IMG/VR virus record: IMGVR_UViG_3300020577_008405
Span: 3,069 to 67,068 of that record
Reading direction: 5' to 3' (one strand)
DNA: 64,000 nt
Source of the DNA: a virus
Lineage: Duplodnaviria; Caudoviricetes
The position numbers and the translations under genes are program-made. Below the pieces are notes generated by a model. That model was not told the DNA's origin. It did not search any database and saw only the letters and a list, made by a program, of their open reading frames with translations. The first letter of the stretch is position 1, and the number at the start of each line of letters is the position of its first letter. Positions 5,822-57,458 of this stretch are shown in pieces.

Positions 5822-6208
5822 ATGAGCAAACGACTTGAGCGATTGAAAGAAACTGCATATAAGGAAGCGCTTAAAAGTACTGGTATTCAGCGTCATGGTG
5901 CTATTGTTCTTGGCAATGGAGGCCGTATTCTTGCCAAAGCATGCAATAACTATGACAATGGATGTCATGCAGAGGTACGTGCACTCAAGCGTGTTCCTCA
6001 TGATGCTAAGGAATGTGCCGTTGCTATTATTGTAGTACGTGCTCGCAGAAATCAACGCTTTGGTTTGAGTCGACCTTGTGTTGCTTGTCAAGCCGCACTC
6101 AAAGCAGCTAACATTGATGTTGTGTACTATTCAACTAATAATGAAACTTTAGAATATGAAACTTTCCACGAAAACGAGCACCGGCCAGTTTTTATTGAGG
6201 GTCATTAG
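5822..6208 (+). CDS. Zn-dependent cytidine/nucleotide deaminase-fold protein
   Basis: HAE (CHAEVRAL) and PCxxC (RPCVAC). Confidence 0.85.
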   Translation: MSKRLERLKETAYKEALKSTGIQRHGAIVLGNGGRILAKACNNYDNGCHAEVRALKRVPHDAKECAVAIIVVRARRNQRFGLSRPCVACQAALKAANIDVVYYSTNNETLEYETFHENEHRPVFIEGH

Positions 6209-6308
6209 AGAATTAGGCTTAATATCTTTTGTAACTGGATATCAAGCAAGCATTTTGTTAACAGTTCGCGGCTTTAAAGGAGTGACACGTGAAAACAACT
6301 TTTGGTGA
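6156..6308 (+). CDS. LxL-motif microprotein (50 aa)
   Basis: MKLSTKTSTGQF-LLRVIRELGLIS-FVTG...; overlaps both neighbours. Confidence 0.6.
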   Translation: MKLSTKTSTGQFLLRVIRELGLISFVTGYQASILLTVRGFKGVTRENNFW

Positions 6309-6501
6309 TTTGATGGGCGAATATGAGCATTCGCGAGATACAGTTAAGCGGTTTGGAACTTGGGATAAGTTAGATGCGTTTGTGGAAAATCTTATTAGTC
6401 AATTAGCAACTAAGCCCACTAGTGTAAGTACTGACAATCAGCCTCAGCAGCAATTTGGTTTTGATGATATGGGATCTGTTGTTCCGGTGACTCATGACTA
6501 A
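6289..6501 (+). CDS. Hypothetical protein
   Basis: AAGGAG RBS, GTG start. Confidence 0.6.
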   Translation: MKTTFGDLMGEYEHSRDTVKRFGTWDKLDAFVENLISQLATKPTSVSTDNQPQQQFGFDDMGSVVPVTHD

Positions 6502-6862
6502 GCCACTTGATAATAGTTGGCAACGGTATCCAGAAGCTCGTGTTCGAATGCGCGAGGATAGTATTAAAACTATTTTAGAAGGATTAGGTGAGAATGGTTT
6601 TTGTATTGATGCTGGTACAAGAGTTGATCTTGTAGATGAAGGGATTTATGTCAACATTCTTTTGAATGTTGGAGAACATGGTAATATTGTTGCTCTTCCC
6701 ATTGACGTTTTAATTCCAACTGAAATTCCTGAGGATGTTCCCAAGAAGACTCGGAAACCAAGAGTTGCAAAAACAGCACCAGTTGTAGATATTCCACTTT
6801 CAGTTGAAGAAGAGACTTCAGCTTCTGAGGAAGAAGTACAATTAGTAAATGAAGATTTGTAA
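6494..6862 (+). CDS. Hypothetical acidic protein
   Basis: ORF in gene run. Confidence 0.6.
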   Translation: MTKPLDNSWQRYPEARVRMREDSIKTILEGLGENGFCIDAGTRVDLVDEGIYVNILLNVGEHGNIVALPIDVLIPTEIPEDVPKKTRKPRVAKTAPVVDIPLSVEEETSASEEEVQLVNEDL

Positions 6863-7313
6863 GAAATGTCAATTATCTAAATCAATAGAAGAATTCCATG
6901 TTGGCAGAGCTAAATGTAAAGTTTGTAGGGAAGTTTATTTAACTTCTTATAGAAGCAAAAATAGTCAAAAAACTAAGTCTAATAAGAATAACTGGAAAAG
7001 AAATAATCCAGATGCTAATAAGTCAGCTAGTCTTAAATGTGACTATGGTATCGACTTAGATCAATATAAAACTATTTTAGACAAACAGAACAATGCTTGT
7101 GCTATTTGCAAGAAAGATAAAGATTGCTTTAATAAGGCCTTAAGTGTTGATCATTGCCATAAGACTAATTTGATTCGTGGTCTTCTTTGTCTGAGATGTA
7201 ATAGATCACTTGGTTTATTGTTCGACAACCCTGAGTTGTTTCGAGCTGCTGCTGAATATTTGGAGAAAGCCTATGCCCAACAAGAAACAGAAGAAGCTTT
7301 ATACGTCACCTGA
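6849..7313 (+). CDS. Endonuclease VII-family (His-Me finger) homing endonuclease
   Basis: CAICK...LSVDHCH...IRGLLCxxCNRSLG. Confidence 0.85.
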   Translation: MKICKKCQLSKSIEEFHVGRAKCKVCREVYLTSYRSKNSQKTKSNKNNWKRNNPDANKSASLKCDYGIDLDQYKTILDKQNNACAICKKDKDCFNKALSVDHCHKTNLIRGLLCLRCNRSLGLLFDNPELFRAAAEYLEKAYAQQETEEALYVT

Positions 7314-7614
7314 AAAGCCTTTTAGAGATCCGGATCACATTAGTAAAAGAGGTGTTTGGTATTTCTGGAGCCCAGAGTGGGTTCGGGGTACAGATTCAAC
7401 AAATAAGTCTTTCGGTCGAATTAAGGCTATTAAGGAATACAATACGGTCAATCTTTATATGCAGAGTAAAGATGGAAATCTAACGTATATTCAAGGCAGT
7501 ATTCAACAAGAATTTAAGGATTGGCACGAGAAGCGAAAGATTGACTATTTCTTTTTAGCTGATGAGCTTGATCCAGATGCTCTTGATGACATTATTCTGT
7601 CTTCTGAGAGTTAA
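7273..7614 (+). CDS. Hypothetical protein
   Basis: GGAG RBS before ATG 7273 (shorter than track ORF). Confidence 0.6.
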   Translation: MPNKKQKKLYTSPEKPFRDPDHISKRGVWYFWSPEWVRGTDSTNKSFGRIKAIKEYNTVNLYMQSKDGNLTYIQGSIQQEFKDWHEKRKIDYFFLADELDPDALDDIILSSES

Positions 7615-7616
7615 TC

Positions 7617-8102
7617 TTGAGTGCGATTATTGTAGCAATTGTATTGCTAGTTGTAATTATCGGCATTGCAGCTATTTTTATGGTTCCAGCATTTCTTCGC
7701 CAGAACATTCCCTGGCGAGTTTTACCAGGAACAGCAGTCAAATATCATGCCTTAGTTCCAATTTCTGAAGCTGCGCTTAAGGAAGCATATCTTGAAGCAC
7801 TTGTTCAGCTACGGACTCATACTGATTTCATGCCTGCAACTTTATTTAAAGTTGCAAATGAGTTACATATTGTTGTTCAAAATGTTAAAGATTGGAATTC
7901 ACCGATGCATGGGAGTAAGGTAGCCGGCATTGCCGATGGATTCACAATTTATATTGGAGTAGACTTTGCGGCATTACTCCACGAAATGGCACATGTTGCT
8001 GAATTTGTAGATGGCAGCATTGATAATGCTCACGCTACTTGGGTGAAGCGTGGCATTTATAAAGCCGATGATGCTTTTCAAGTTACGCTTAAAGCGAAAT
8101 AA
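7617..8102 (+). CDS. Membrane-anchored putative metallopeptidase
   Basis: N-terminal hydrophobic helix; HExxH (LLHEMAH). Confidence 0.6.
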   Translation: MSAIIVAIVLLVVIIGIAAIFMVPAFLRQNIPWRVLPGTAVKYHALVPISEAALKEAYLEALVQLRTHTDFMPATLFKVANELHIVVQNVKDWNSPMHGSKVAGIADGFTIYIGVDFAALLHEMAHVAEFVDGSIDNAHATWVKRGIYKADDAFQVTLKAK

Positions 8103-8111
8103 GTGACACTG

Positions 8112-8801
8112 CTACGGTCGACTATTACAGCGACTAATACGAAAAAGAAGTCTATTTACTAATTCATCTTTTTCTTGAGTTGTAATAGGAGTAGCGAGAT
8201 GAGTCAAACGATTTTTACGAAAAGCTGTACGGTCAATTGGTTCAATAATTTTATCTGCTAATCCAAGTTGACATGCTTCTTCTGCAGAAAGATATAAGTC
8301 TCGTTGACAAACATCTTGCCAAAATGATTTTGGCATTTTGCTATTAGATGCATAAATATCATATAGCTTGTCTTGAAGACGTACAGCTTCTGCAAGTTCA
8401 ATCTTAGTATCTGTATGGGTTCCTTTGACGCTTTCAGTGCCATCATGAACCATGACAGTAGTATTGGGGAATAGGTATCGTTCATCACAAACACACATAA
8501 TCCATGTGGCACTACTTTGAATAATACCACCACCAAAGAATTTTACTGGACAAGGACATGATAGAATTTCATCCACCAAACGCAACATGGCGTACGGATC
8601 CCCGCCTCCAGAGCTCATATATAGCTCAATGGGTTTATGAGGGTCATCGAATGTCAGAAGGTGTAGCGCGCGCACACAATGCTCTATCGAACGTGTGGTT
8701 ACTTCTCCGATGTCTTCCAAAGTTGGGTCTGTGCACACACCGAAGTATATACGACGCTGATCGAAATCTAAGCCAGTCTCTAAAATATTATCGTCGGTCA
8801 T
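8112..8801 (-). CDS. clpP: ClpP-like protease subunit (copy 1)
   Basis: YMSSGGG, QSSA (Ser), VMVHD (His), RDLYLSAEEA...GLADKII (Asp). Confidence 0.9.
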   Translation of the reverse strand: MTDDNILETGLDFDQRRIYFGVCTDPTLEDIGEVTTRSIEHCVRALHLLTFDDPHKPIELYMSSGGGDPYAMLRLVDEILSCPCPVKFFGGGIIQSSATWIMCVCDERYLFPNTTVMVHDGTESVKGTHTDTKIELAEAVRLQDKLYDIYASNSKMPKSFWQDVCQRDLYLSAEEACQLGLADKIIEPIDRTAFRKNRLTHLATPITTQEKDELVNRLLFRISRCNSRP

Positions 8802-8829
8802 AGAAGTATTCTACAAGGAGAAAACATAG

Positions 8830-9099
8830 ATGTCTAAGAAAGAAACAATTGAAGAATTTTTGGCTAGGGGTGGACAAATTACCAAATGTGCTTCCGCTCC
8901 ATTACCTGATGAAGAAGAAGATAATCGGACTAATCCGACTTCTGCAACTAGTTCAACTATGATGACTTTAGCAGAAGGCGCACTTTATTATGCCGAGTCA
9001 CGAGCTAAACCTAAAGAACGTAAGAAGATTGAAGATAAGCTTATCAACTTTGCCGCACTTCCAGCAAGTTTATTAAAGTACATGCCTAAGAAGAATTAA
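8830..9099 (+). CDS. Hypothetical phage protein
   Basis: AAGGAG RBS; ETIEEFLARGGQIT N-terminus. Confidence 0.65.
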   Translation: MSKKETIEEFLARGGQITKCASAPLPDEEEDNRTNPTSATSSTMMTLAEGALYYAESRAKPKERKKIEDKLINFAALPASLLKYMPKKN

Positions 9100-10421
9100 A
9101 ATGGATCTGTTTTAATTACTAATCTTCCATCTACGAAAATTAATGAACCGCTTTGTCCTGAAGGACTTAATTTCGCAATTGGAGCTACGTCATTATCATT
9201 AGTATCAGGGAAAGCACCTGGAATATTAAAAGCAAAGATACTAGCCGCTGCAGCCAACTTGAACGGAAGTCGAGTTTGAGTTTGCTGCAGCGTTGACATT
9301 TGAGTTAAATAGCCATTCATTGGCTCAATAGCATTTGGTAAGGCAACTTGAGTAACACCTTCACCAAATGCTTTATGTAAAGCAGCATCCAAATCCAATA
9401 ATGCAATTTTCTGTCGGAAAGTGACGCCTAAATTAGTTGAAACAACTGGCGTACCTGGCGGAATAAATTGCTCAATACCTACTTGACGAATAGTATCGGG
9501 CGACGCTGGACCTGGCAATCCCAGTTCAATAAGTTGCCCGATACCAATACCAAGAAATTCTTTATCTAGTTCTTTAATTGCTCGCGGTGTACCCACAGCA
9601 ATTGTTTGGTTAATTCCTTTACCAATAAAAGCTCCTGGACCCACAATTTCTGGTGAACCAAACGAAACATCTTGGTTAATTCCAAGATTACTTAATGTTA
9701 TTGGATTTAAGTCGCCAACTGGTGACCCAAAATCAATTAATTGAGCAATACCGACGCCTAATGGTTGAAGTTGTCGAATAACGCTTGGAGATCCAAGTTC
9801 AATAAGTTGCTCAATACCAATACCATTTGGGCGTACTGCCGTTAAGGACGTTGGCGTTCCAAAATTAATTAATTGCTCAAAACCAAGGCCATCAGGACGT
9901 ACGGAAGTTTGAGCAGTTGGATCCCCAAGTGTTATTGGTTGTTCAAAACCGAGACCAACAGCGTCTCCGTTCATATTGATATTTGGACTACCTAAAATTA
10001 CTGTTTGATCAACACCCACTCCAATACATGCAATGGTTGCTGGCAAGATAACATCTACGACTAAATTTGGCCAATTAGGATCATTTTCCGATAAAACTGT
10101 ATCAGGCAGAATTTTTAAAGTATAAGTATTAACAGCACTTAAGGCACCAGATAAATTAAGAACAATGATACGTGTATTGGCTGTAAATGTTACACTTGAT
10201 ATCGAAGGTACACTTGGCCCTAATAAAGTATAACTCGATGTAGCAGTACTCGCTGTATTCAGCAAATCAGGAAATTGGATTGTTATAGTATTAGGACCAG
10301 CTACTCCATAACGAGCTGTCCATAACATTCCTCGTACATCAGTATTTCCCCTTATCTTAAAAGCATATGAAAGAGGCTCAATGGAAGCATTAGCTGGCTG
10401 TGTATAGTCAAAAGCTGCCAT
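9096..10421 (-). CDS. Repeat-containing putative virion protein
   Basis: Nine GxGxxQxIxxGxP repeats; modules shared with neighbours. Confidence 0.75.
   Translation of the reverse strand: MAAFDYTQPANASIEPLSYAFKIRGNTDVRGMLWTARYGVAGPNTITIQFPDLLNTASTATSSYTLLGPSVPSISSVTFTANTRIIVLNLSGALSAVNTYTLKILPDTVLSENDPNWPNLVVDVILPATIACIGVGVDQTVILGSPNINMNGDAVGLGFEQPITLGDPTAQTSVRPDGLGFEQLINFGTPTSLTAVRPNGIGIEQLIELGSPSVIRQLQPLGVGIAQLIDFGSPVGDLNPITLSNLGINQDVSFGSPEIVGPGAFIGKGINQTIAVGTPRAIKELDKEFLGIGIGQLIELGLPGPASPDTIRQVGIEQFIPPGTPVVSTNLGVTFRQKIALLDLDAALHKAFGEGVTQVALPNAIEPMNGYLTQMSTLQQTQTRLPFKLAAAASIFAFNIPGAFPDTNDNDVAPIAKLSPSGQSGSLIFVDGRLVIKTDPF
10353..10420. repeat. 68-nt exact direct repeat, copy 1 (copy 2 at 10788-10855)
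   Basis: Identical sequence encoding the N-terminal AAFDYTQPANASIEPLSYAFKI of two adjacent genes. Confidence 0.95.
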
Positions 10422-10424
10422 TGA

Positions 10425-10856
10425 TTATGTGTCCAGATAAATAGCAATATTACCAATTGCATTCGCAACAGATGAAATTCCATCTGAAAAGGTATTTTCT
10501 TTAATAAATAAAGAATAGTTTTGTCCAATAGTTAATGAACCAGATAATGTCAGACGAATAAAAGTTTTTCCAGCAGTAAAGGTAACTGCAGAAACAGAAG
10601 GTGCACTAGGACCAGTGATAATGTAGTTTGATGTTGTGGTCATTGATGCACTAGATACTAAAATGCGATCAGTTTGAATGTAAAGAAAAGAAACACTTCC
10701 ACTAGGAGAATAACGTAAAACACATGGAATTGGACCATTTCCAATTCCATCTATTACTGCTGTACCAGCACTTACAGGGAATAAGGCTATCTTAAAAGCA
10801 TATGAAAGAGGCTCAATGGAAGCATTAGCTGGCTGTGTATAGTCAAAAGCTGCCAC
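10425..10856 (-). CDS. Putative virion protein (Ig-like/beta-rich)
   Basis: Homologous to N-terminal part of 9096-10421. Confidence 0.7.
   Translation of the reverse strand: MAAFDYTQPANASIEPLSYAFKIALFPVSAGTAVIDGIGNGPIPCVLRYSPSGSVSFLYIQTDRILVSSASMTTTSNYIITGPSAPSVSAVTFTAGKTFIRLTLSGSLTIGQNYSLFIKENTFSDGISSVANAIGNIAIYLDT
10788..10855. repeat. 68-nt exact direct repeat, copy 2
   Basis: Base-by-base match to 10353-10420. Confidence 0.95.
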
Positions 10857-17284: not shown

Positions 17285-17404
17285 ATGGAAGTCACGGACA
17301 GATGGCGTAGATATGTGTCTGTCCGTGACTTCCTAAGTATGCTATATGTCTTAGAATTGATTTCAAAGAATTCTTATTGGGCAGCAAAAAGCGCGTCAAG
17401 GTAG
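17285..17404 (+). CDS. LxL-motif microprotein (39 aa)
   Basis: MEVTDRWRRYVSVRD-FLSMLYVLELIS-KNSY... Confidence 0.65.
   Translation: MEVTDRWRRYVSVRDFLSMLYVLELISKNSYWAAKSASR
17287..17333. repeat. Perfect 16-bp inverted repeat inside microprotein 5' end
   Basis: GGAAGTCACGGACAGA / TCTGTCCGTGACTTCC. Confidence 0.9.
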
Positions 17405-17407: not shown

Positions 17408-17527
17408 ATGAAAGCAACAAATAAACACAAATCGTCTGTTACAGAAATTGATGTTGCTTATATGCACAAGCGACAGCTAATAAGATTTATGCGACTGTTA
17501 CGATTAACAAATAAAATTCTTTTATGA
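17408..17527 (+). CDS. LxL-motif microprotein (39 aa)
   Basis: ...HKRQ-LIRFMRLLRLTN-KILL. Confidence 0.55.
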   Translation: MKATNKHKSSVTEIDVAYMHKRQLIRFMRLLRLTNKILL

Positions 17528-17718
17528 ATCGAAATAGTAAATCATTAGATTGGCTTTCACTTGACTCTGAAGCTTTAGTAAACTCTACTTTTCGTTTTTT
17601 CGCTGTCTTACTTACAGTTAAACTTATAACTGCAGATACCTTTTATTCTATGGGTACCAATCGGTTAATTGAAAGATTAATCAATAGTAAATTTCCTTAC
17701 AATACTATTGTGAAATAA
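17524..17718 (+). CDS. LxL-motif microprotein (64 aa)
   Basis: ...STFR-FFAVLLTVKLIT-ADT; ATGA overlap. Confidence 0.6.
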   Translation: MNRNSKSLDWLSLDSEALVNSTFRFFAVLLTVKLITADTFYSMGTNRLIERLINSKFPYNTIVK

Positions 17719-26281: not shown

Positions 26282-26476
26282 ATGTTTGAAATACAAACAA
26301 TCCATAATAGTGTTAAGAAATTTTGGATTGTGTTGTATCGTTTAGAACTAATTTCGTATGATGTAGCTATAATTCTAGTTGCTTTAACTTACGATCGCCA
26401 TAACTTCATTTTACGATGGCAAAACCAAAAAAAAATCAGAGAATGTATAACTAAAATATATGAAAATTCTTGTTGA
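26282..26476 (+). CDS. LxL-motif microprotein (64 aa)
   Basis: FWIVLYRLELIS. Confidence 0.7.
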   Translation: MFEIQTIHNSVKKFWIVLYRLELISYDVAIILVALTYDRHNFILRWQNQKKIRECITKIYENSC

Positions 26477-27038
26477 TATGGATGGAATTGTTACTGATAC
26501 GCTTCCAGCTTGGTTGAAGCGTATTTACGAACTTACTGGTGTTTCTGTTGAGCCAGAGAAAATCCAGAAATGGAATCTTTGTGACAATCCGCCGCTAGAT
26601 AAGCTCGATCACAAACTTATTGTTGATATCTTAAACGAAAAAGATTTCAACATCAATCTGCCGCAAATGGCTGATGCTACTTATTATCTTAAGCGTCTTC
26701 ACGATGCTGGACATGATATCAGCATTGTAACAGCAAGACACGGAATCACCTGTATTTCTGAAACCATTCAATGGCTTGAAATCATGATGCCGTGGTTTAA
26801 TGTTGCTAAGAAAACCTGGTTTTGTTATGAAAAACACAGGATTATTGCTGATGTACTCATTGATGATAAAGCTGAAAACTTAATTGAGTACCGCAAAATG
26901 CACCCTAATGCTCATTTGATTACGATTGACTATATCTTTAATAAGCATGCGCCTAGTGATACTAAGCGTATCTTGAAGAATGGATATGAGTGGGAAGCTA
27001 TTGAAAGCTATATCACTAAGCTCTCTAAAAAGGACTAA
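26460..27038 (+). CDS. 5'(3')-deoxyribonucleotidase (HAD)
   Basis: DMDG, IVTAR, LIDDKAEN. Confidence 0.9.
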   Translation: MKILVDMDGIVTDTLPAWLKRIYELTGVSVEPEKIQKWNLCDNPPLDKLDHKLIVDILNEKDFNINLPQMADATYYLKRLHDAGHDISIVTARHGITCISETIQWLEIMMPWFNVAKKTWFCYEKHRIIADVLIDDKAENLIEYRKMHPNAHLITIDYIFNKHAPSDTKRILKNGYEWEAIESYITKLSKKD

Positions 27039-28506: not shown

Positions 28507-29218
28507 ACAATTTGAGAAAGTTGAAGAATTAGATTCTGTAATTGAGGGAGTACAGAATCTAAAAGAGAAACTTGCGCACTATCAACTTAATAGTGTTTAT
28601 TTGTTTGAGCGAATTGATTACTTCAACCCTAAAAACACGTGGGTTGAAAAAACCCACACGGGATTCCCTATCAAATACAAAGTTGTTTATATATCAAAAA
28701 CTGGCGTACCTTATCTACGACGTATTTCTGTAGCTGGAAATCCAGTTGGTAATGCTTTTATTCCACCAGAAGCACTTGCGATTCAAGCTTTAACAAATGT
28801 AACTAAAAATGAAACCTTGTTAAGCGGGAATTCAATTGTTGCTCGTTTTATCCCTGACCCAGAGCAACTTGATGCAATTCTTCTTCAAGAAGAATTTGAT
28901 CCTATGGAGCAACATAGAAAAAAGTCTCAACTTTTTAATGAGATCAATAAACACAATAAATCAGTCTTAGTCCGTACTGGTTCTGATTACAACAGTATTG
29001 CTACGTTTTTTAAGAACTTGCAACCTGGTGATAAGTTTTGGACTTCTGTAGAAAAACAGTTTGTTATTCAATCAGTTGTTAAAGTTAATCGTGAGTATGT
29101 AATTACTTGTACTGATCACAATCAAGCAACTGTCGAATTTCGTTTCAAAGATTTTATGTATAAGCGGCTATATTCTGCTCAACCGCGATCTTTCCGCAAA
29201 GAGACTCGAAGTGAATAA
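28487..29218 (+). CDS. Hypothetical protein, paralog of 34114-34866
   Basis: YLRRISVAG, RFIPDPE, LQPGDKFW. Confidence 0.75.
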   Translation: METLTNEQFEKVEELDSVIEGVQNLKEKLAHYQLNSVYLFERIDYFNPKNTWVEKTHTGFPIKYKVVYISKTGVPYLRRISVAGNPVGNAFIPPEALAIQALTNVTKNETLLSGNSIVARFIPDPEQLDAILLQEEFDPMEQHRKKSQLFNEINKHNKSVLVRTGSDYNSIATFFKNLQPGDKFWTSVEKQFVIQSVVKVNREYVITCTDHNQATVEFRFKDFMYKRLYSAQPRSFRKETRSE

Positions 29219-29375
29219 CAAACTGAGACCTGAAAAAATACGTCGAAAAATAGGTTATCTTCGACATATGAATGCACGAAATCCTACATCTGGAGCAAAT
29301 AGAAATACTTGGACTGTGTTTTGGATGATCTTATATAAGTTAAAATTAACTACTAAACTGCATTACCACTTCTAA
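29211..29375 (+). CDS. LxL-motif microprotein (54 aa)
   Basis: GTG start overlapping upstream stop; FWMILYKLKLTT. Confidence 0.65.
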   Translation: MNNKLRPEKIRRKIGYLRHMNARNPTSGANRNTWTVFWMILYKLKLTTKLHYHF

Positions 29376-29841: not shown

Positions 29842-29988
29842 ATGACCACAACGAGCCAATTACTACGATGGTTACATATGGCTCATTTTCTTTCATTTAT
29901 TCGGACTATAAAGTTAATTAGAAATCACACTGGTACTGAAGCATTAATTCTGGAGTATAGACGTATATGTCCGCCTCTAGAACCATAA
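29842..29988 (+). CDS. LxL-motif microprotein (48 aa)
   Basis: FLSFIRTIKLIR. Confidence 0.6.
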   Translation: MTTTSQLLRWLHMAHFLSFIRTIKLIRNHTGTEALILEYRRICPPLEP

Positions 29989-30152
29989 CTTCAAAAATTC
30001 TTTTAGATAGTCATCTTAAAACATTTAATTGGTTTTTTTGGATTTTGAGGGAAACAGGTCTTATAAAGAAAATGACCTTCTATGAGATAACTCATAATAC
30101 AGCTAAAGAATTTTATGGTGCGCGCATCACTTCAACACTTAAAAGCTTTTGA
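29967..30152 (+). CDS. LxL-motif microprotein (61 aa)
   Basis: FFWILRETGLIK. Confidence 0.65.
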   Translation: MSASRTITSKILLDSHLKTFNWFFWILRETGLIKKMTFYEITHNTAKEFYGARITSTLKSF

Positions 30153-30240
30153 TTATCTTCTTTGGTGTATATTTAGATTAAAATTAATAAGCAAGAAGAG
30201 TATGGATGACACATATTCGCGTTCGCGCTTTTTAAGATAA
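30115..30240 (+). CDS. LxL-motif microprotein (41 aa)
   Basis: LLWCIFRLKLIS. Confidence 0.65.
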   Translation: MVRASLQHLKAFDYLLWCIFRLKLISKKSMDDTYSRSRFLR

Positions 30241-30244
30241 AGTT

Positions 30245-30377
30245 ATGACTAGCTCACTCAAATCAGAACAATGGTTGTATTTTGTGCGTTTTTTTCCGAT
30301 CACTTATCTATTTAAAACTAATTGATCCCGTAACGAGTAGTATTTCATTAAAGAAAGCACATAATCGTACTCTTTAA
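30245..30377 (+). pseudogene. LxL-motif microprotein frameshifted at a T7 run
   Basis: Removing one T from 30289-30295 gives MTSSLKSEQWLYFVR-FFRSLIYLKLID-PVTSS... Confidence 0.55.
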
Positions 30378-30383
30378 AATAAA

Positions 30384-30542
30384 ATGACTCGGGAACAATT
30401 AGTTTTGGCAGATTATTTTTTGTCACTTGGTGTGCTTTTAGGACTCTTTTCTCGTAAAGCTTCAAACACAGCCTGGTGGAGAGTGCGTGATCGAATGGCA
30501 CGCAATGAGCCTGGATTAGGTAAACTCCATGAAAGACTTTAA
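30384..30542 (+). CDS. LxL-motif microprotein (52 aa)
   Basis: FLSLGVLLGLFS. Confidence 0.55.
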   Translation: MTREQLVLADYFLSLGVLLGLFSRKASNTAWWRVRDRMARNEPGLGKLHERL

Positions 30543-30699
30543 AAAACTATCTCGTCGTGATCAGCATTCTTGGATTGATGTTATGGATAGTTATCTTATG
30601 TTCTGCTGTAAACTTAATCTTATTTCAAGCGAATGTAATGCAGCTTGTTGGGATTTTGTGGTTGATAAGTATTTAACAAAGGCAAGAAAATATGACTGA
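30529..30699 (+). CDS. LxL-motif microprotein (56 aa)
   Basis: YLMFCCKLNLIS; overlaps orn start. Confidence 0.6.
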   Translation: MKDFKKLSRRDQHSWIDVMDSYLMFCCKLNLISSECNAACWDFVVDKYLTKARKYD

Positions 30700-31221: not shown

Positions 31222-31728
31222 ATGACAACAGTCCTTACATCTTTTCTTATATCTTTAGTTCCTTTAGACATGAAAGTGTCTACTTGGCCACTCGAAGGTA
31301 TGAATGGAGAACTTAATAATATTGCTTACATGGAGTCATATTATGGGACTTATGTCAACCATGAACCACATGTTCGTGGAGCGTTTCATACTGCTTTTGG
31401 TTCGCTAGGACTAAAACCAGTTACTGCTCATGATCAGTATTTGAAGTCCCCAAGACTTCAAAAGCAATTTCCGGGTCTTCAAGATGAAAAAGTTTTCTTG
31501 CAAGAGTTTTGGCGCAATCGTTTACTTTATGTGCAATGTGCCAACTTTCATTGGTATTATTTACGATCAGTGACACCTACATTAGCGAGAGCTGTTTATT
31601 CTTGGCGATGGGGTTTGACTGCTTCTAATAATGCAACAGATGAGCAGATTGCAACTGATTCATATACGGCTAAATATGCCATACTCACGCAACGATATAT
31701 CGATGCAAGAACCATCTCCAAGCGTTAA
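31222..31728 (+). CDS. Hypothetical protein, possibly lysozyme-fold
   Basis: AAGGA RBS; IAYMES resembles the SLT catalytic Glu motif (weak). Confidence 0.5.
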   Translation: MTTVLTSFLISLVPLDMKVSTWPLEGMNGELNNIAYMESYYGTYVNHEPHVRGAFHTAFGSLGLKPVTAHDQYLKSPRLQKQFPGLQDEKVFLQEFWRNRLLYVQCANFHWYYLRSVTPTLARAVYSWRWGLTASNNATDEQIATDSYTAKYAILTQRYIDARTISKR

Positions 31729-31861
31729 TGGTATATATCCACCATACTTAGCTTATGCATATTTAATTAACTTTTATTGGACTCTTCATACATTAAAGTT
31801 AATGTCAGATTCTGTTTTTACTTTAGCTAAGCAAAAAGTGTTTGAAAAATATTTATGGTAA
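31703..31861 (+). CDS. LxL-motif microprotein (about 52 aa)
   Basis: FYWTLHTLKLMS. Confidence 0.6.
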   Translation: MQEPSPSVNGIYPPYLAYAYLINFYWTLHTLKLMSDSVFTLAKQKVFEKYLW

Positions 31862-32877: not shown

Positions 32878-32971
32878 ATAGGATAGTGTTAATCCAGAAG
32901 TACGAGTAAGAAAATTTTACCTAACAATAGCAGTTTAAAGATAAAGAATATAAAAATTAACATTAAGTAAA

Positions 32972-33139
32972 ATGCTACTCACTCACTTAGCCATTAAGTC
33001 TCGACTAACGGCATCTAAAATAACAATGTTACAGACAACTGTACTTTTCTTATGGATGCTACGTATACTACATTTAATTAGCATTGATACAAATTGGTGC
33101 GCGCGGAATTTAGTTTACGATGAGTACAAATACCTATAA
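32972..33139 (+). CDS. LxL-motif microprotein (55 aa)
   Basis: FLWMLRILHLIS. Confidence 0.65.
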   Translation: MLLTHLAIKSRLTASKITMLQTTVLFLWMLRILHLISIDTNWCARNLVYDEYKYL

Positions 33140-33296
33140 TCGTCATATCGTATTTCCCTTTGGAGGCTTTCAATATGCGAGCTTTCGAAGATTGCGCGCT
33201 ATGTGGCCTTCGGGCGGCGATGCACAAATTTCTTTTATAGGGTTTTTAACAATCTTATCTAGGTTAGGACTGTGTTCTGCAAGGCATTTAGACTAA
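33120..33296 (+). CDS. LxL-motif microprotein (58 aa)
   Basis: FLTILSRLGLCS. Confidence 0.6.
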   Translation: MSTNTYNRHIVFPFGGFQYASFRRLRAMWPSGGDAQISFIGFLTILSRLGLCSARHLD

Positions 33297-34117: not shown

Positions 34118-34866
34118 AATACGAAATTACGCAAACTGATCGCGACATAATGGAACGCGATATGCATACTGATCGAACGCTTAAACACCTTCGAAATCTT
34201 TCATTTTATAAATTTACTATTGGCGATGTTTTGATTCGCGAAGAGAAGTATCGAAAACATGGTTCGCATGATGAATACGAATGGAAGCCAATGACTGCTT
34301 CTTGTGGATTAAATAACAAATATGTTTATATATTTGAAAATGAACTTGGAATTGGTTATATTCGTCGTTTAAGTGTAAATGGACGCAAATTTGTTGATCA
34401 TCCGATGTGTGTTACCACTTTTGATCCTGACCAAACCAGGTTTTCTTTAGATCCAGAATACGCTGATCATATGCTTTTATCAGGCGAGGATGATGAATTC
34501 GATACCCAAACTCGTTATGAAACACTTAAGAAGAAGAAGGAACGTGTTAAGCGCATGAATGCAAAGCTTGCTCTTAAACTTGATACTAGCAATGAATTAA
34601 GTGTTGTGACTTGGATGAAAAGTCTTAAGCCAGGTGATACACTTTGGTGGGGCAATGGTCTTAGTAATATTCGTAAAGAACCCCTTGTTGTTCAATCTGT
34701 AACAACGAATACTAATTCATGGGGTTATAACCAAAATACCCACACTCTAAAATGTGTAGATGTTAATAATCCAACTGGATATCCTCACACATTCCAGTCA
34801 AATTATATGGGACCATATTGCTTCTTTACAACACGACCACATTTCGCTGATGAGGTACTTGACTAA
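34114..34866 (+). CDS. Hypothetical protein, paralog of 28487-29218
   Basis: YIRRLSVNG, RFSLDPE, LKPGDTLW. Confidence 0.75.
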   Translation: MKYEITQTDRDIMERDMHTDRTLKHLRNLSFYKFTIGDVLIREEKYRKHGSHDEYEWKPMTASCGLNNKYVYIFENELGIGYIRRLSVNGRKFVDHPMCVTTFDPDQTRFSLDPEYADHMLLSGEDDEFDTQTRYETLKKKKERVKRMNAKLALKLDTSNELSVVTWMKSLKPGDTLWWGNGLSNIRKEPLVVQSVTTNTNSWGYNQNTHTLKCVDVNNPTGYPHTFQSNYMGPYCFFTTRPHFADEVLD

Positions 34867-35903
34867 TGAAAAGTAGGCATCAAGAAATCAAAATAAATAA
34901 TACCTATTCTAATTGGACGGTTACTAGTTTACCATTTTTAGATGGAAAGTTTTATAAAGTTTCTTGCCAATGCACTTGCGGTAAAACTAAAAAAGTTAAA
35001 ACACATAATTTATTGAGTGGCAAAAGCAAAAGTTGCGGTTGCATTCAACAAAAGGCCTTAGTCAAGAATTTAACTGGAAAACCATCTAAACATCGTGTTT
35101 CTGCGGCAGTAAAGGCGATTAACCAAATTCACAATTCTTATAAATTTGGAGCCAAAAAAAGATCTCTTTCTTTTTCTTTAACTAAGTCGGAATTCACAAC
35201 ACTATTACAACAAGAATGCTCATATTGTGGTAAATTAAATAGTAATCTTAAAAATAATATTAATGGATCTTTTACTTACAACGGCATAGACAGAGTTGAC
35301 TCAAATATTGGATACGAACTCTATAATGTTGTTGCATGTTGCTCAACATGCAACATGATGAAAAACGACTTACCATTAAATGAATTTTATGAACATCTTC
35401 GCGCTATAAAAACTTATACAACTAAAGATCTATTTAAGATTACTGAACGCAAATTAAATTATCTTCACGCTAAGGCTACGGCTGTTGCAGCCGCATCACA
35501 TGACATCCACACTAAAGTTGGAGCGATCGTGTTAGATGCTAAAACGGGAGCGGTCTTAGCAGAAGGTTACAACGGTTTTGTGCGGCATGCTCCTGATATT
35601 ATCTTGCCTACGAGTAGACCTGAAAAGTATGATTATATGGTCCACGCAGAAATGAATGCACTTTGCCACGCTGGGAGACAAGGCACCAAAGTGGATGATA
35701 GTATTCTGTATACAACTTTGTCTCCATGCAAGCTTTGTTTGCGCTTGATGTGGCAAGCAGGAATTAAGGATATTTATTTCAAAGAAAAATATAAAGACTT
35801 TGAGGAATGTACGTCTATGTTGGACTTAAAAGTATCTTTAAATCAAATTGGTGACTTTTATCATATGATAGTGAGTACTCGTGACCAAGCAAAAAACATT
35901 TGA
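34866..35903 (+). CDS. Homing endonuclease-like / dCMP deaminase fusion
   Basis: CQCTCG...SCGC; GIDRVDSNIGY..NVVACCSTCN; TKVGA...GYNG...HAEMNAL...SPCKLC. Confidence 0.85.
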   Translation: MKSRHQEIKINNTYSNWTVTSLPFLDGKFYKVSCQCTCGKTKKVKTHNLLSGKSKSCGCIQQKALVKNLTGKPSKHRVSAAVKAINQIHNSYKFGAKKRSLSFSLTKSEFTTLLQQECSYCGKLNSNLKNNINGSFTYNGIDRVDSNIGYELYNVVACCSTCNMMKNDLPLNEFYEHLRAIKTYTTKDLFKITERKLNYLHAKATAVAAASHDIHTKVGAIVLDAKTGAVLAEGYNGFVRHAPDIILPTSRPEKYDYMVHAEMNALCHAGRQGTKVDDSILYTTLSPCKLCLRLMWQAGIKDIYFKEKYKDFEECTSMLDLKVSLNQIGDFYHMIVSTRDQAKNI

Positions 35904-36060
35904 TAGATTGTTTTATAGCTTAAATCATAGAATTGCCTTAGAGCGGTTTTTCTTTACATTAAAGATTCTTAAACTATTTGCGCTAGACAAGAGTAGATGG
36001 TCAATAGAATTACGCTATAGTGAACAAAATGCTTTTATAGATAGACATGGATCTTTTTAA
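35881..36060 (+). CDS. LxL-motif microprotein (59 aa)
   Basis: GTG start; FFFTLKILKLFA. Confidence 0.6.
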   Translation: MTKQKTFDRLFYSLNHRIALERFFFTLKILKLFALDKSRWSIELRYSEQNAFIDRHGSF

Positions 36061-36211
36061 GAAAAGACTTAAAACCCCCTCGGGGGTATTAATTAGTGAA
36101 GTCGATCTTATTCACTTTTTTACTATGTTGAGCAAATTAAAACTAATTAATAGTGATACTAGTTATCAGGCTTTTGTGCGCTTTAGCGATAACTTAGAGC
36201 GCGTTGAGTAA
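36047..36211 (+). CDS. LxL-motif microprotein (54 aa)
   Basis: FFTMLSKLKLIN. Confidence 0.65.
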   Translation: MDLFKKRLKTPSGVLISEVDLIHFFTMLSKLKLINSDTSYQAFVRFSDNLERVE

Positions 36212-37484: not shown

Positions 37485-37901
37485 TTATGCTAGTGCAACG
37501 CCATCGTTCGCAACTACCTGCCAACGAAGAGCACCACCAACTAGAACTGAACGAAGCATAATGCTATCGCGCGCAGCACCAAATGTCATCGTGGTGTTAC
37601 CTGCCTGATTAATACCCTGCGCTGAAGTAATTACTCGGTTACCACCGAAGACGTTCATATTCAAGATAAGAACTTGGCCTAAGAAGGTAGGAATGGCAAG
37701 CGTGTTAGTTTCAGCGCCTGCAGAGGTAATGTTAATTGTAGCACTTGTCGTTACAGGAATTGCTGCGCCCGTTCCAGGATCTGCAACTGAAAGAGGAATA
37801 TAAAGTGAAAGATTGTCAATCGCATCTGAAATTTCAGTTGCTTCAGAGCGCTTAGCGAGCGCTGCTTCTAAACGTTTACGTGCTTTTGTTGATAGAGCCA
37901 T
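37485..37901 (-). CDS. Putative virion accessory protein
   Basis: Shares N-terminus with 37985-39409. Confidence 0.7.
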   Translation of the reverse strand: MALSTKARKRLEAALAKRSEATEISDAIDNLSLYIPLSVADPGTGAAIPVTTSATINITSAGAETNTLAIPTFLGQVLILNMNVFGGNRVITSAQGINQAGNTTMTFGAARDSIMLRSVLVGGALRWQVVANDGVALA

Positions 37902-37902
37902 A
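37861..37902. repeat. 42-nt exact direct repeat (copy 2 at 39369-39410)
   Basis: Encodes MALSTKARKRLEAA in both genes. Confidence 0.9.
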
Positions 37903-37984: not shown

Positions 37985-39409
37985 TTACTCGTAAATGTAA
38001 GTGCCGTATGGATTAGGTACCAACGGGAAAACTCTTGGAGAGTTACCTCTGAGAGTCACTAAGGTTCCAGTTGTACCGTCAACGGAAAGTTCGTTGCCTG
38101 ATACGCTTAGAGTAGCTGTATTCGAGATTTGAACACGAGCACCTTTTACAGCAACTATGCCGTTAGTATTGCCCGAACCAGAGCAAGTTGCTAGCGCGCA
38201 TATAGCATGATTTTGAGCACTTAAGATAGTGGTACAGCCATTAAAGAACATAGTAGTGGCAGATGCTGAAGAGAGTGTTGCACTAGCGTTGGTTGATCCT
38301 ACAGAAATCGCCGTTGTTGTGTTTATAAATCGCATGCCAGATGTTATAAGAGCCTGAGATCCAGCATTGAGACTCAAACCGGTAGTCTGACCTTCAAAAG
38401 TAGATGTTCCGATTGAATATAGAGAAGGACCTGTGCCAGTACTTATCGCAGTAGCGCCATTTCGAAAATAAGAATTGAAGAGCGTGAAATTACGTAAAGC
38501 GGTTGCAGACGTTATGCCATTGCCAGTGGTATCGTTAAAAGAGACGTAACATTTAGAGAGAGTTAGAGTAGATCCAGAAGTACAGGAAACTCCCGCCGTG
38601 TTAGTTCCAGATGTACGCAATAGACTTACGTTTGCCAGTGTAACAGTAGCGTTACGAATAGTAACTGCAGAATTACCGCTGGCTAATCCAGTAGAATCAG
38701 CCACCATTGTCGATATAGTTATATCATTGGAGTTAGGAGTTATAAGGTCGGAAATTGCTATTCGTGCTACACCAGATCCTGAGGAGGTTAACATCACACT
38801 ACCAGTATTAATTACAGTTCCGACTTCCCAGATTGAATATGCTCCGGAAAGTGCGCTATTTGACGCAGCCGTGATCGTTGTAGCTGTATTTGAGATGATC
38901 GGGTAATAAATAGAGCTAACTAAAACAAAGCGTCCACGAAGTTCATTAACTGTCCAAGACTGCCCTGCGTCTGTTAAGACAGCAGCTAAATCAACCAGAC
39001 TGCCTGTAGCAGTCCCAGATGTCGTCCCCGATGTTAGTACTGGCGCTATCCAAGTGCCAGCAATAGTAAGCGAACCTTGAGTTGGGGTCGATACCGTGGA
39101 CGGAGAAACAGGTGTAAATGCTCCACCGTTAATAGAAAAAGCGTTAAAAGAACCAGCACCAACCTGAATGATTGCAGCATTTCTATTGACCTTACGAGCC
39201 AATGAGTCAATCGCAGCTTGAATAGACCTAAACGGTTTTGTTACAGAACCATCACCAGAATCTGATCCTGTTACAGAAACATTCAATGTGAGTGCAGTAT
39301 TGACATTAGTATCTAAAACTGAGTCAATTGCATCTGCAATTTCAGTTGCTTCTGCCTTTCGTGATAGTGCTGCTTCTAAACGTTTACGTGCTTTTGTTGA
39401 TAGAGCCAT
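37985..39409 (-). CDS. Tailspike-like beta-helix protein
   Basis: VSVTGSDSGDGSVTKPFRSIQAAID motif followed by pectin-lyase-like repeats. Confidence 0.7.
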   Translation of the reverse strand: MALSTKARKRLEAALSRKAEATEIADAIDSVLDTNVNTALTLNVSVTGSDSGDGSVTKPFRSIQAAIDSLARKVNRNAAIIQVGAGSFNAFSINGGAFTPVSPSTVSTPTQGSLTIAGTWIAPVLTSGTTSGTATGSLVDLAAVLTDAGQSWTVNELRGRFVLVSSIYYPIISNTATTITAASNSALSGAYSIWEVGTVINTGSVMLTSSGSGVARIAISDLITPNSNDITISTMVADSTGLASGNSAVTIRNATVTLANVSLLRTSGTNTAGVSCTSGSTLTLSKCYVSFNDTTGNGITSATALRNFTLFNSYFRNGATAISTGTGPSLYSIGTSTFEGQTTGLSLNAGSQALITSGMRFINTTTAISVGSTNASATLSSASATTMFFNGCTTILSAQNHAICALATCSGSGNTNGIVAVKGARVQISNTATLSVSGNELSVDGTTGTLVTLRGNSPRVFPLVPNPYGTYIYE

Positions 39410-39440
39410 AATTAAGTCCTTTTAATTATTTTATCACGGG

Positions 39441-53112: not shown

Positions 53113-53143
53113 TATAGCTCCTGTTAAACACCCAGGAGCTATA
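53113..53143 (-). promoter_or_regulatory. 11-bp hairpin occluding the RBS of 52794-53111
   Basis: TATAGCTCCTG-N9-CAGGAGCTATA immediately before ATG. Confidence 0.7.
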
Positions 53144-53161
53144 GTACCACTTGTGAAGTTA

Positions 53162-53181
53162 ATCCGAAAATGCTTTCGGAT
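53162..53181. terminator. Short hairpin after microprotein gene
   Basis: ATCCGAAA-ATGC-TTTCGGAT. Confidence 0.5.
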
Positions 53182-53324
53182 CACTTTCTTTTCTTCATCT
53201 TGACATTGTGAGTCATTTTATGAAATAGCACAATGAATTCACCAAGAACAGGATTGGAAATCAGTCCTAATCGTCGGAATACAATAAAAGGCGCCATATA
53301 CATGCGTACATGCTTATATTTCAT
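53181..53324 (-). CDS. LxL-motif microprotein (47 aa)
   Basis: TAATG coupling; PFIVFRRLGLIS. Confidence 0.65.
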   Translation of the reverse strand: MKYKHVRMYMAPFIVFRRLGLISNPVLGEFIVLFHKMTHNVKMKKRK

Positions 53325-55631: not shown

Positions 55632-55639
55632 GTTTATTC

Positions 55640-56026
55640 CTATATAGAAGAATCGTCCGGAAGAAAACCGGAAATATCGATATCTTCCGATATAGATTGT
55701 ACATCTGGGGATGATTGGATGGTTACTGGAAGCGTATATGTGCCCATCGTATACGTGGCACCAGACATGAGACTACAGCAAATAACGCAATATGTATTGC
55801 CAAGGTAATCCGGAAGAGATCCTTGGCACACATGTGGTTTAGGTATCGGCGTTGTAATCGGCATACCTACATATTGACCAGATGTAAATCCAAAAGGGTT
55901 GTCCCTCATGGATTTAATCGTGTCTCTGCTCGCTTCCGAGTTAGACCAATCTTGATCGGACCTGACTTTGCCTGTATAAAGTAAATTTTGCTGCTCTTGT
56001 TGGATCCCCAGATTTGCTTTTGCCAC
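55640..56026 (-). CDS. Hypothetical protein (start uncertain)
   Basis: Overlaps 55906-56157 in another frame. Confidence 0.45.
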   Translation of the reverse strand: MAKANLGIQQEQQNLLYTGKVRSDQDWSNSEASRDTIKSMRDNPFGFTSGQYVGMPITTPIPKPHVCQGSLPDYLGNTYCVICCSLMSGATYTMGTYTLPVTIQSSPDVQSISEDIDISGFLPDDSSI

Positions 56027-56157
56027 GCTTCCGTTTGCCGGAATTTCGTCTGGTTCACCTTGCCCTGCTCGCGGCGCTTCTTCACATACTCTGGATCTTT
56101 CATCCGTTTCTGGTGGTACTCACGGGCGGCGGCATTCTTCTCTTCCTTGCTGCTCAT
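55906..56157 (-). CDS. Basic protein ending in truncated GIY-YIG/T5orf172-like motif
   Basis: IYFIQAKSGPIKIGLT...RL; TATAAT upstream. Confidence 0.5.
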   Translation of the reverse strand: MSSKEEKNAAAREYHQKRMKDPEYVKKRREQGKVNQTKFRQTEAWQKQIWGSNKSSKIYFIQAKSGPIKIGLTRKRAETRLNP

Positions 56158-56241
56158 CTGTTTGCGTGCCTTGGTTAACGCCGCTGGTGCTCTAATCCTG
56201 CTGAGTTAGTATTCATAAGAAGATTATACCTCAATAATTTA

Positions 56242-56313
56242 TCACAACCTATAAAACAACTTCAATTTATATAGTATATACCTAAACCTCATCATCCTGT
56301 GATGGTCAGTCAT
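56242..56313 (-). CDS. LxL-motif micropeptide (23 aa)
   Basis: MTDHHRMMR-FRYILYKLKLFY-RL. Confidence 0.65.
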   Translation of the reverse strand: MTDHHRMMRFRYILYKLKLFYRL

Positions 56314-56318
56314 GTAAT

Positions 56319-56432
56319 TTATTTATAAGGGTTAAACAGTTTCAACTTGTAAAGTAAAAATTTTAATTTTAACATTTTCTCTTGGGGAGAAAGATATTTT
56401 ACATAAGGGTCTAAGGTGTATGGATAAGACAT
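56319..56432 (-). CDS. LxL-motif microprotein (37 aa)
   Basis: LKFLLYKLKLFN. Confidence 0.7.
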   Translation of the reverse strand: MSYPYTLDPYVKYLSPQEKMLKLKFLLYKLKLFNPYK

Positions 56433-56437
56433 ATAGT

Positions 56438-56539
56438 TTAGCTAAGTTTACCACATAATTTTAATTTATAAAGAATATACCTAAATTTCATTTTCCAATG
56501 GCGAATCGCCATATTCTTTAATACTTCACTCCAATCCAT
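56438..56539 (-). CDS. LxL-motif microprotein (33 aa)
   Basis: FRYILYKLKLCG. Confidence 0.7.
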   Translation of the reverse strand: MDWSEVLKNMAIRHWKMKFRYILYKLKLCGKLS

Positions 56540-56544
56540 TTTTG

Positions 56545-56626
56545 TGGGTGTGGTAGGGATCGAACCTACTTGACCGAAGTCGACGGATTTACAGTCCGTT
56601 GCCTAGTCCATTAAGGCGGCACACCC
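56545..56626 (-). tRNA. tRNA-Tyr(GTA)
   Basis: GGGTGTG/CACACCC, ACGGA-CTGTAAA-TCCGT, long variable arm, GTAGG-TTCGATC-CCTAC, A73. Confidence 0.92.
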
Positions 56627-56633
56627 GTTAATA

Positions 56634-56774
56634 TTACTTAGAATTGAGATACAGTTGCTGTAATTCGTTATTACTTATAAAACGATAATTCTTATTAAGA
56701 TCTAACACATATAGCATCCACATAAAATTCTGAATAACTCCACGATCAACCCATTTCCATTTCATGGTTTTCAT
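56634..56774 (-). CDS. LxL-motif microprotein (46 aa)
   Basis: FMWMLYVLDLNK; sits between two tRNA genes. Confidence 0.7.
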   Translation of the reverse strand: MKTMKWKWVDRGVIQNFMWMLYVLDLNKNYRFISNNELQQLYLNSK

Positions 56775-56776
56775 AA

Positions 56777-56849
56777 CGATCTCTAAGAGAATTGAACTCT
56801 TATTTACTAGTTGAGCAAACTAGTCGCTCTACCGTTGAGCTAAAGAAGC
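56777..56849 (-). tRNA. Atypical tRNA-like gene with 9-nt anticodon loop
   Basis: GCTC-AACGGTA-GAGC, ACTAG-TTTGCTCAA-CTAGT, AAGAG-TTCAATT-CTCTT; weak acceptor. Confidence 0.6.
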
Positions 56850-56902
56850 AAGTGATAGTCGTTCGTACTCAGGCAGTGAAATACGAATATGAGGCCTACT
56901 AA

Positions 56903-57337
56903 TTATCTCGCGACCTTGTCACTTAACAAAATTCCATCTAAGTGCTCTATTTCGTGCTGCAACATCTGTGCTCTTAAGCCGCCAGTATTCATAGTGTGAC
57001 TAACTTTATCAACGTCTTGATATGAAACTGTAATCTTCGAAAAGCGCTGTACGTCTTCAAAGATGCCCGGGAAAGAAAGACATCCTTCTTTCATAAACTT
57101 CTTTGTACCACCAATGCGTTCGATTTTAGGATTGATATAGATCTCCTTGCCGTTACCTACATCAGCCACGATGACACGTAGAGGCGTTCCAATCTGGATT
57201 GCTGAAAGACCGACACCTTCATACTGATACATCACTGCAAACATGTTGTGAATAAGGATTTGCAAGTCGGTGGAAAAATCCACTTCAGACGACACTTGCC
57301 GCAATTTTTCGTCCGGAAAAACTACCAACATAATCAC
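56903..57337 (-). CDS. def: Peptide deformylase
   Basis: GVGLSAIQIG, EGCLS, QHEIEHLDG. Confidence 0.95.
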   Translation of the reverse strand: MIMLVVFPDEKLRQVSSEVDFSTDLQILIHNMFAVMYQYEGVGLSAIQIGTPLRVIVADVGNGKEIYINPKIERIGGTKKFMKEGCLSFPGIFEDVQRFSKITVSYQDVDKVSHTMNTGGLRAQMLQHEIEHLDGILLSDKVAR

Positions 57338-57458
57338 GTCTCCATAATCGTAATAGAATCAGAACAGCAAGAAAGTTATGAGACAAGTCCGCATTACGTG
57401 TTAGATCCGACTTTTTAAAACGTGGTCTAAGGTGAGGCGGTATCCATAGCGGAGGCAT
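57285..57458 (-). CDS. LxL-motif microprotein (57 aa)
   Basis: FLAVLILLRLWR; overlaps def start. Confidence 0.5.
   Translation of the reverse strand: MPPLWIPPHLRPRFKKSDLTRNADLSHNFLAVLILLRLWRRDYVGSFSGRKIAASVV

Follow-up and report, generated by a model that had tools for sequence, protein, structure and literature searches.

The closest described counterparts of the genes considered here are the PeSL cassettes of T4-type phages, which Arbiol, Comeau and Krisch reportedly described as ORFan mini-genes residing in hyperplastic regions of these genomes. The hallmark of the T4-type cassettes is a repeated DNA element that combines an early promoter with a stem-loop, and the open reading frames (ORFs) that they carry are mutually unrelated. 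Here we analyse a stretch of 64,000 nucleotides (nt), hereafter the window, which spans bases 3069-67068 of a 67-kb viral contig (IMG/VR record IMGVR_UViG_3300020577_008405) and in which gaps between long ORFs are occupied by micro-ORFs whose products share one short protein core. As in the T4-type phages, the very small genes lie among early and metabolic genes, follow the local gene direction and are gained or lost as cassettes between relatives. In contrast to the PeSL cassettes, they are accompanied by no DNA repeat or promoter box, and the ORFs are paralogues with a common protein core. They constitute a previously unnamed microprotein family specific to a group of ~160-180 kb environmental phages.

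A protein motif in the gaps between long genes

The initial annotation of the window proposed some 26 microproteins sharing a 12-residue motif. All 12 peptides that it quoted are present in the sequence, its coordinates being those of the ORF start codons, with the cores located 27-108 nt downstream. The strict regular expression given there matched 11 times in the window, whereas block shuffles gave 1.0 matches on average. A first matrix, built from the 12 quoted cores, produced 14 matches scoring at least 21 bits, all of them in gaps between long ORFs and on the sense strand (next best, 14.8), and no match of at least 17 was obtained in 1.42 Mb of control loci from 80 unrelated jumbo-type phages, which had been found with RNA ligase in IMG/VR, are too distant to serve as relatives and have a G+C content of 28-58%. 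To remove circularity, a second matrix was trained on relatives only, with the window left out. At scores of at least 13.2 it detected 19 sense-strand gap copies in the window and one extra match at 8702, antisense inside a gene and probably due to chance; the rate in the control DNA at the same level was ~0.7 per 64 kb. Another three copies, all weak, round off the tiling of the gaps and raise the count from a firm 19 to 22, short of the number originally proposed. All matrix copies lie on the local sense strand, as had been claimed, and match rates in antisense, shuffled and unrelated-phage DNA are not comparable to those in sense gaps. The virion block, which has few gaps, contains no copy.

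A protein search with the neighbouring nucleotidyltransferase retrieved relatives on long contigs, at 96% to 71% identity, and seven syntenic relative loci were compared with the window. The motif is present in all seven, at the same junctions and almost only on the sense strand. Across these relatives the conserved positions are encoded by all six leucine codons, by both TTT and TTC, by serine codons of the TCN and AGY types and by all four threonine codons. This free synonymous variation, together with the frame-specific selection described below, bears out the claim that conservation is at the protein rather than the DNA level. The sequences flanking the core are also kept within each junction, which defines orthologous groups. 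Group A proteins have a basic N-terminal part followed by a GA...TW segment before the core; those of group B have an N-terminal PF...KY part and the C-terminal end LCS-x-RHL-D/E; and subfamily J conforms to the pattern [IL]-x3-D-x-[FY]-L-x4-K-L-x-L-I-[ST]-x7-[WY]. In profile-profile comparison between subgroups, 18-32 columns around the core align with E ~1e-4. Because the flanks are conserved within orthologous groups, and because the subgroups share these alignable columns, the flanks cannot be called unrelated, as they had been.

Selection was measured between the window and its closest relative, L082, over eleven gap-free ORF alignments. In the ORF frame, the proportions of synonymous (pS) and nonsynonymous (pN) differences are 0.305 and 0.125, respectively (pN/pS 0.41), compared with pN/pS values of 0.84 and 1.12 when these columns are read in the shifted frames. 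Seven neighbouring long genes have an equal pS (0.301) and a pN/pS of 0.04; thus, purifying selection on the family is about ten times weaker than on the neighbouring enzymes. Motif codons (0.37) and flank codons (0.42) are alike in this respect, so that purifying selection, for which the initial annotation had proposed a codon-level check, acts on both. In addition, each of the 14 strong copies has an open ORF frame upstream of its core, with a median length of 28 codons (minimum 12), compared with medians of 5-9.5 codons in the other five frames. Judging from these sequence comparisons, the micro-ORFs are very probably real genes.

Predicted fold and competing explanations

The members are 23-64 amino acids (aa) long (median 52) and basic (median isoelectric point, pI, 10.0), with a grand average of hydropathy (GRAVY) of ~0 (-0.8 to +0.5) and charged residues within and beside the core. 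Small hydrophobic membrane toxins or holin-like peptides were considered as well, and no membrane-spanning hydrophobic stretch was apparent by GRAVY, no dedicated transmembrane predictor having been run. AlphaFold2 modelling of the member at 30529 on the alignment of subfamily J (16 sequences) yielded two long helices, at residues 9-28 and 34-54, connected by a loop at 29-33 (L-N-L-I-S), with a mean predicted local distance difference test score (pLDDT) of 84.3. The member at 17524, modelled on the family-wide alignment, has three predicted helices (15-31, 37-44 and 47-56), with a pLDDT of 88-91 in the core and a mean of 69.6. In both models, the core is predicted to span the junction of helices 1 and 2: F-x3-L-x2 makes up the last two turns of helix 1, L-x-L-[ICT]-[ST] forms a turn of five residues, and a Ser/Thr caps the N-terminus of helix 2. 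Many members also possess a capping-box-like x-D/x-T after the core, followed at a short distance by an aromatic residue. An alpha-hairpin is accordingly the predicted fold for each protein. The free-standing amphipathic docking helix of the initial annotation is not supported by this placement of the core at a helix end, an inter-helix turn and an N-cap, for which the simplest reading is a fold core inherited by paralogues; on the strength of the models, we consider it somewhat probable that the shared motif is such a retained fold core.

The explanation that we favour, at a probability of roughly 55%, is that these small, basic proteins form an alpha-hairpin family that is specific to the clade and expands in tandem, with the shared core as their fold core and a function as accessory binding modules. 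Under this explanation, the core would have been kept since duplication as the structural core while the surfaces diverged, and the paralogues would be made together with the early genes, each with a surface of its own. Their targets would probably be host or phage macromolecules, with nucleic acid possible given the charge, and the family would evolve through arms-race-like turnover. A role in host takeover or counter-defence is conceivable, although we would not yet count on it. Of the interpretation advanced initially, the existence of a protein-level family (coding, as far as sequence comparison can tell), the adherence to gene direction and the overlaps with neighbouring genes stand, and the idea of unrelated flanks with a free-standing docking helix is not supported in the form in which it was put.

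Several observations weigh against our explanation. The hairpin is predicted from shallow alignments; in groups A and B the core lies just 5-6 residues from the C-terminus, and one member is only 23 aa long. Between the window and a second relative, L084, the selection signal is weaker (0.73 vs ~1.0) and the alignments are gappy. The codon-usage score of the micro-ORFs (-0.05) is intermediate between those of real genes (+0.26) and spurious ORFs (-0.29), and a weak Shine-Dalgarno-like match is found at one or two starts at most, compared with ~60% of the long genes. Finally, no sequence or fold relative supplies a function: no Pfam match reached the cut-off (the best, HARE-HTH, had an E of 0.12 for one member), PHROGs contained no match to the family, a PDB sequence-profile search gave nothing below E 0.079, the ESM Atlas search found nothing, and neither Foldseek (PDB, BFVD) nor VIA-align produced a fold match above chance for the helical models.

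Some of these observations are better accommodated by the model put forward initially, in which an autonomous docking helix has been grafted onto unrelated small proteins, all addressing one common target (a host sensor, polymerase, protease adaptor, clamp or the membrane) as an expandable decoy or effector set. The core is the sole segment common to all groups; in groups A and B it is found at the very C-terminus, preceded by conserved N-terminal parts that are unrelated; the 23-aa member has little beyond it; and the hydrophobic face (positions 1, 2, 4, 5 and 8) is wider than a two-helix hairpin requires. With 2-6 residues after the core, groups A and B and the 23-aa member do not fit a simple two-helix hairpin, which keeps the docking model alive. 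Still, the conserved residues are placed by AlphaFold2 at a helix end, a turn and an N-cap, where folds conserve residues for structure; the similarity between subgroups runs past the 12 residues (up to 32 columns); and, to our knowledge, residues that characterize the bacterial docking motifs described so far, such as the Gln of the clamp-binding QL[SD]LF, are missing from the core. Taken together, we regard grafting of a docking helix as unlikely. A related possibility, which we likewise rate low, is that the core serves as a common plug through which the ~20 paralogues dock onto one hub, their divergent surfaces recruiting or blocking different clients; the hub could be a host factor or a phage protein such as the ClpP-like protease or AAA-ATPase/VWA pair encoded nearby. 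If so, the family would amount to an expandable, strain-variable repertoire of adaptors or decoys that grows by the addition of units. The median pI of 10 and the interleaving of members with two RNA ligases, an RlaP-type nucleotidyltransferase, an RNase T-like exonuclease and transfer RNA (tRNA) genes, including one orthologue found coupled to the RNase T gene in every case, would instead be consistent with small basic nucleic-acid binders tied to an RNA-repair/tRNA module, for instance RNA chaperones or shields of tRNAs against anticodon nucleases. We consider this improbable: an A+T-rich, fast-evolving sequence could by itself account for the high pI, no helix-turn-helix (HTH) or RNA-binding family was matched, the neighbourhood by itself is weak evidence, and members also adjoin unrelated genes (the A1-like gene, the deformylase and the dCMP deaminase).

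The motif copies are intergenic, directional and genome-specific, few of the ORFs have Shine-Dalgarno-like starts, their codon-usage score is weak and strong hairpins occur just upstream of two copies, all of which might be expected if a DNA- or RNA-level element (a promoter, terminator, processing site or mobile cassette boundary) merely translated into similar peptides. Such an element, or chance, is very unlikely to be the explanation. Outside the core, the aligned copies contain no conserved hexamers, positional k-mers or boxes at a fixed distance, and neither half of the core is specific when used as a nucleotide matrix. Moreover, synonymous codons are all used at the conserved residues, the excess of synonymous changes is confined to the ORF frame, the shift of Trp between positions 2 and 3 of the core amounts to exactly one codon, and the open upstream frame described above is found in every one of the 14 copies.

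Individual elements of these kinds were considered as candidates and rejected. The window contains no DNA repeat family beyond one 64-nt pair at 56234 / 56433; the sites found in scans for sigma-70 promoters and terminators do not coincide with the cores; aligned copies, judged by eye, show nothing consistent in the way of Bacteroidetes-type or phage-type boxes; and GTGCGCGC, which is located near some copies, is not enriched. Rfam and tRNA scans gave five tRNAs only, and eight folded copies are without a common structure. Stop-codon recoding was discarded as well, all three stops being scattered through the flanking frames. Two hairpins merit separate mention. The G+C hairpin CCCCCTCGGGGG in the member at 36047 (coding for T-P-S-G) is erased in L082 by four synonymous changes with the peptide kept. 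A 13-bp hairpin at 17290-17330, directly after the gene for a 464-aa protein, overlaps the start and N-terminal codons of the member at 17285 and is preserved in L082 through compensation (G-C to C-G) at the base of its stem; it probably represents a real RNA element (stability element or terminator) overlapping the ORF.

Members, arrays and gene setting

The members are tightly packed with early-type genes of nucleotide metabolism and RNA repair and with tRNA genes, and the overlap with neighbouring starts and stops noted initially is evident at several junctions. Starts are coupled to the upstream stop as TAA-n-ATG at 17285 and 26282, as TGA-n-ATG at 29842 and as TAATG at 53324, and member ends overlap the start of the next gene at 26460, 30692 and 31855. 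On the left, all members are encoded on the plus strand. The first (6156..6308, 50 aa, core LLRVIRELGLIS at 6192-6227, matrix score 18.1) overlaps the end of the ORF 5822-6208 and the start of 6289-6501. It is followed by a 39-aa member (17285..17404, core 17330-17365), the ATG of which lies 1 nt past the upstream TAA, and by the 64-aa group F member (17524..17718, core FFAVLLTVKLIT at 17596-17631; pS 0.24, pN 0.05). The group H member, also of 64 aa (26282..26476, core 26321-26356; pS 0.28, pN 0.06), likewise starts 1 nt past a TAA, and its end overlaps the start of 26460-27038. The group A member (29211..29375, 54 aa, GTG start) has its core, FWMILYKLKLTT (29319-29354), close to the C-terminus and a basic N-terminal part that is kept in 7 phages.

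Six or seven units fill the 860-bp gap at 29842-30699 as a tiled array. Unit 1, of group E (29842..29988, 48 aa, core 29887-29922), begins 1 nt past the upstream TGA and is followed by unit 2, of group D (29967..30152, 61 aa, core FFWILRETGLIK at 30033-30068), and by unit 3 (30115..30240, 41 aa, core 30157-30192). Unit 4 (30245..30377, core FFRSLIYLKLID at 30291-30326) is frameshifted in this assembly, and a 1-nt deletion at 30289/30290 in three other samples yields an intact ORF of 43 aa. Unit 5 (30384..30542, 52 aa) has a weak core, FLSLGVLLGLFS (30417-30452, score 9.5), and unit 6, of subfamily J (30529..30699, 56 aa, core YLMFCCKLNLIS at 30592-30627), shares its last nucleotides with the start of the RNase T-like gene (30692) and has an orthologue at the same spot throughout the clade. 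In other samples, unit-sized replacements are seen in this array at 29994-30127 and 30168-30265, and an extra unit with the core FLWLLFELKLIS is present near 32910, as it is in L082, which indicates that strains vary by gain and loss of whole units, copy number included.

Downstream of the array, the 52-aa member at 31703..31861 (core 31772-31807; its basis includes P0140) has a stop that overlaps the ATG of an RNA ligase gene at 31855. The group I member (32972..33139, 55 aa, core 33047-33082; pS 0.47, pN 0.13) is followed by the group B member (33120..33296, 58 aa; pS 0.13, pN 0.01), with its core FLTILSRLGLCS (33243-33278) close to the C-terminus, and a weak member (35908..36060, 50 aa, core FFFTLKILKLFA at 35947-35982) precedes that of group G, the carrier of the CCCCCTCGGGGG hairpin (36047..36211, 54 aa, core 36116-36151; pS 0.39, pN 0.06). 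On the right, members are encoded on the minus strand. The ATG of the 47-aa member at 53181..53324 (core PFIVFRRLGLIS at 53256-53291) overlaps the TAA of the A1-like gene, and four units are grouped around two tRNA genes: the 23-aa member, which lies in repeat D8 (56242..56313, core FRYILYKLKLFY at 56251-56286); a weak member of 37 aa (56319..56432, core LKFLLYKLKLFN at 56331-56366); a 33-aa member that starts 5 nt past tRNA-Tyr (56438..56539, core FRYILYKLKLCG at 56450-56485, score 24.6); and a 46-aa member between tRNA-Ser and tRNA-Tyr (56634..56774, core 56691-56726). The last member, a weak one (57285..57458, 57 aa, core FLAVLILLRLWR at 57339-57374, score 13.2), overlaps the start of a putative peptide deformylase-like gene. 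The ORF in question (56903-57337) adjoins the tRNA cluster, and presumably encodes a peptide deformylase, judging by eye from the EGCLS... and HE..H motifs in its translation; it would be an auxiliary host-like gene.

Subgroup C is found in relatives and not in the window (L086 11120-11311, L087 11186-11428, L089 10962-11207 and L090 10938-11204). After the core, its proteins, which may bind metal, carry a conserved D-[FY]-C-R-F ... P-C-[RK]-H segment, and in three of the four phages the gene precedes a MopE-like gene.

The contig has a completeness rating of ~39%. The size of this environmental phage genome is put at ~170 kb, and its close relatives are contigs of 160-178 kb. The left arm of the window, on the plus strand, encodes a DNA ligase, an AAA-type ATPase and the 464-aa protein, which is labelled HNH endonuclease in PHROGs and whose counterparts in relatives have Pfam DUF2201 (VWA-like) domains, together with two RNA ligases, the RlaP-type nucleotidyltransferase and a dCMP deaminase that contains an HNH insertion; synteny with relatives adds ClpP-like, NT5C, thymidylate-synthase-like and RNase T-like genes. 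The right arm, on the minus strand, contains the virion genes, a T5 A1-like gene, a GIY-YIG endonuclease gene and the gene for the major head protein. The tRNA genes in the window number five. Nine studies contributed metagenomes with near-identical DNA, from riverine, aquatic, activated-sludge and wastewater sources; no RNA run was listed among the sequencing runs carrying it, and the single run labelled RNA-Seq is probably DNA. Megablast of the window against annotated phage records gave no match, and an IMG/VR search with the nucleotidyltransferase of the window retrieved no relative.

Several features of the neighbouring genes were noticed in passing. The dCMP deaminase gene of the window (34866-35903) encodes 345 aa, the N-terminal half being HNH / endonuclease VII-like, and in relatives the deaminase stands alone (142-159 aa); the gene thus looks like an endonuclease fused to, or inserted before, the deaminase. 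A GIY-YIG homing-endonuclease-like gene (59020-60273) directly adjoins the major head protein gene (60340-61785). An exact 68-nt direct repeat (10353-10420 and 10788-10855) makes up the 5' end of each of two minus-strand genes that lie side by side (9096-10421 and 10425-10856), the products of which therefore have an identical N-terminus. A 45-nt repeat with 98% identity (37858-37902 / 39366-39410) similarly forms the 5' ends of the minus-strand genes 37485-37901 and 37985-39409, a second gene pair with the same 15 N-terminal residues.

Significance and comparison with known proteins

Many activities involved in host takeover and anti-defence have been found among small phage proteins, most of which are singletons that are hard to recognize. 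Here, a single microprotein family makes up about a fifth of the gene count in a 64-kb stretch, is conserved across a widespread freshwater and wastewater phage clade and evolves about ten times faster than its neighbours, which offers a natural variant series for separating the residues responsible for the fold from those responsible for function. Gene callers with a 60-aa floor miss this large, selected part of such genomes. Should the members share one target, they would represent a new kind of modular effector system, the more exciting outcome; should there be no common target, the family would be a clean example of microproteins born and diversified within a phage lineage.

A literature search for comparable families returned nothing relevant. 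A search of 1.84 billion representative proteins with the family profile resulted in 19 matches, 16 of them small (50-66 aa) and unnamed; the two small ones for which contigs were looked up, P0139 and P0141, come from the same clade and sit in the orthologous position, before the RNase T-like gene. The other three matches are large proteins.

The family is reminiscent of HTH proteins, for which the generic pattern is hydrophobic-x2-Leu-Gly-Ile/Val-Ser/Thr: a helix ending in Leu is followed by a short turn and a Ser/Thr cap, several members contain L-G-L-I-S, and the proteins are small and basic. However, the turn in the family has one extra residue, position 9 is usually occupied by Lys instead of Gly, no HTH family was matched, the better model is a two-helix hairpin instead of a three-helix bundle, and groups A and B are without a helix after the core. 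The two antiparallel helices of ~20 residues that are predicted here, with their tight turn and wide hydrophobic face, are also similar to proteins of the Rop/ROM type, but there is no sequence match or significant fold match to these, and the best VIA hit (Z 5.6, root-mean-square deviation 6.1 over 58 residues) is at the level of noise for helical models. Leucine-rich repeats and export signals have the same leucine spacing (L-x2-L-x-L), and two of the large proteins detected with the family profile, with 7 and 12 matched stretches, respectively, may consist of leucine-rich repeats. In contrast, the members described here have one core per ORF, which is predicted to be helical up to the L-x-L turn, and they belong to a bacterial phage, so the resemblance to leucine-rich repeats and export signals is compositional rather than homologous.

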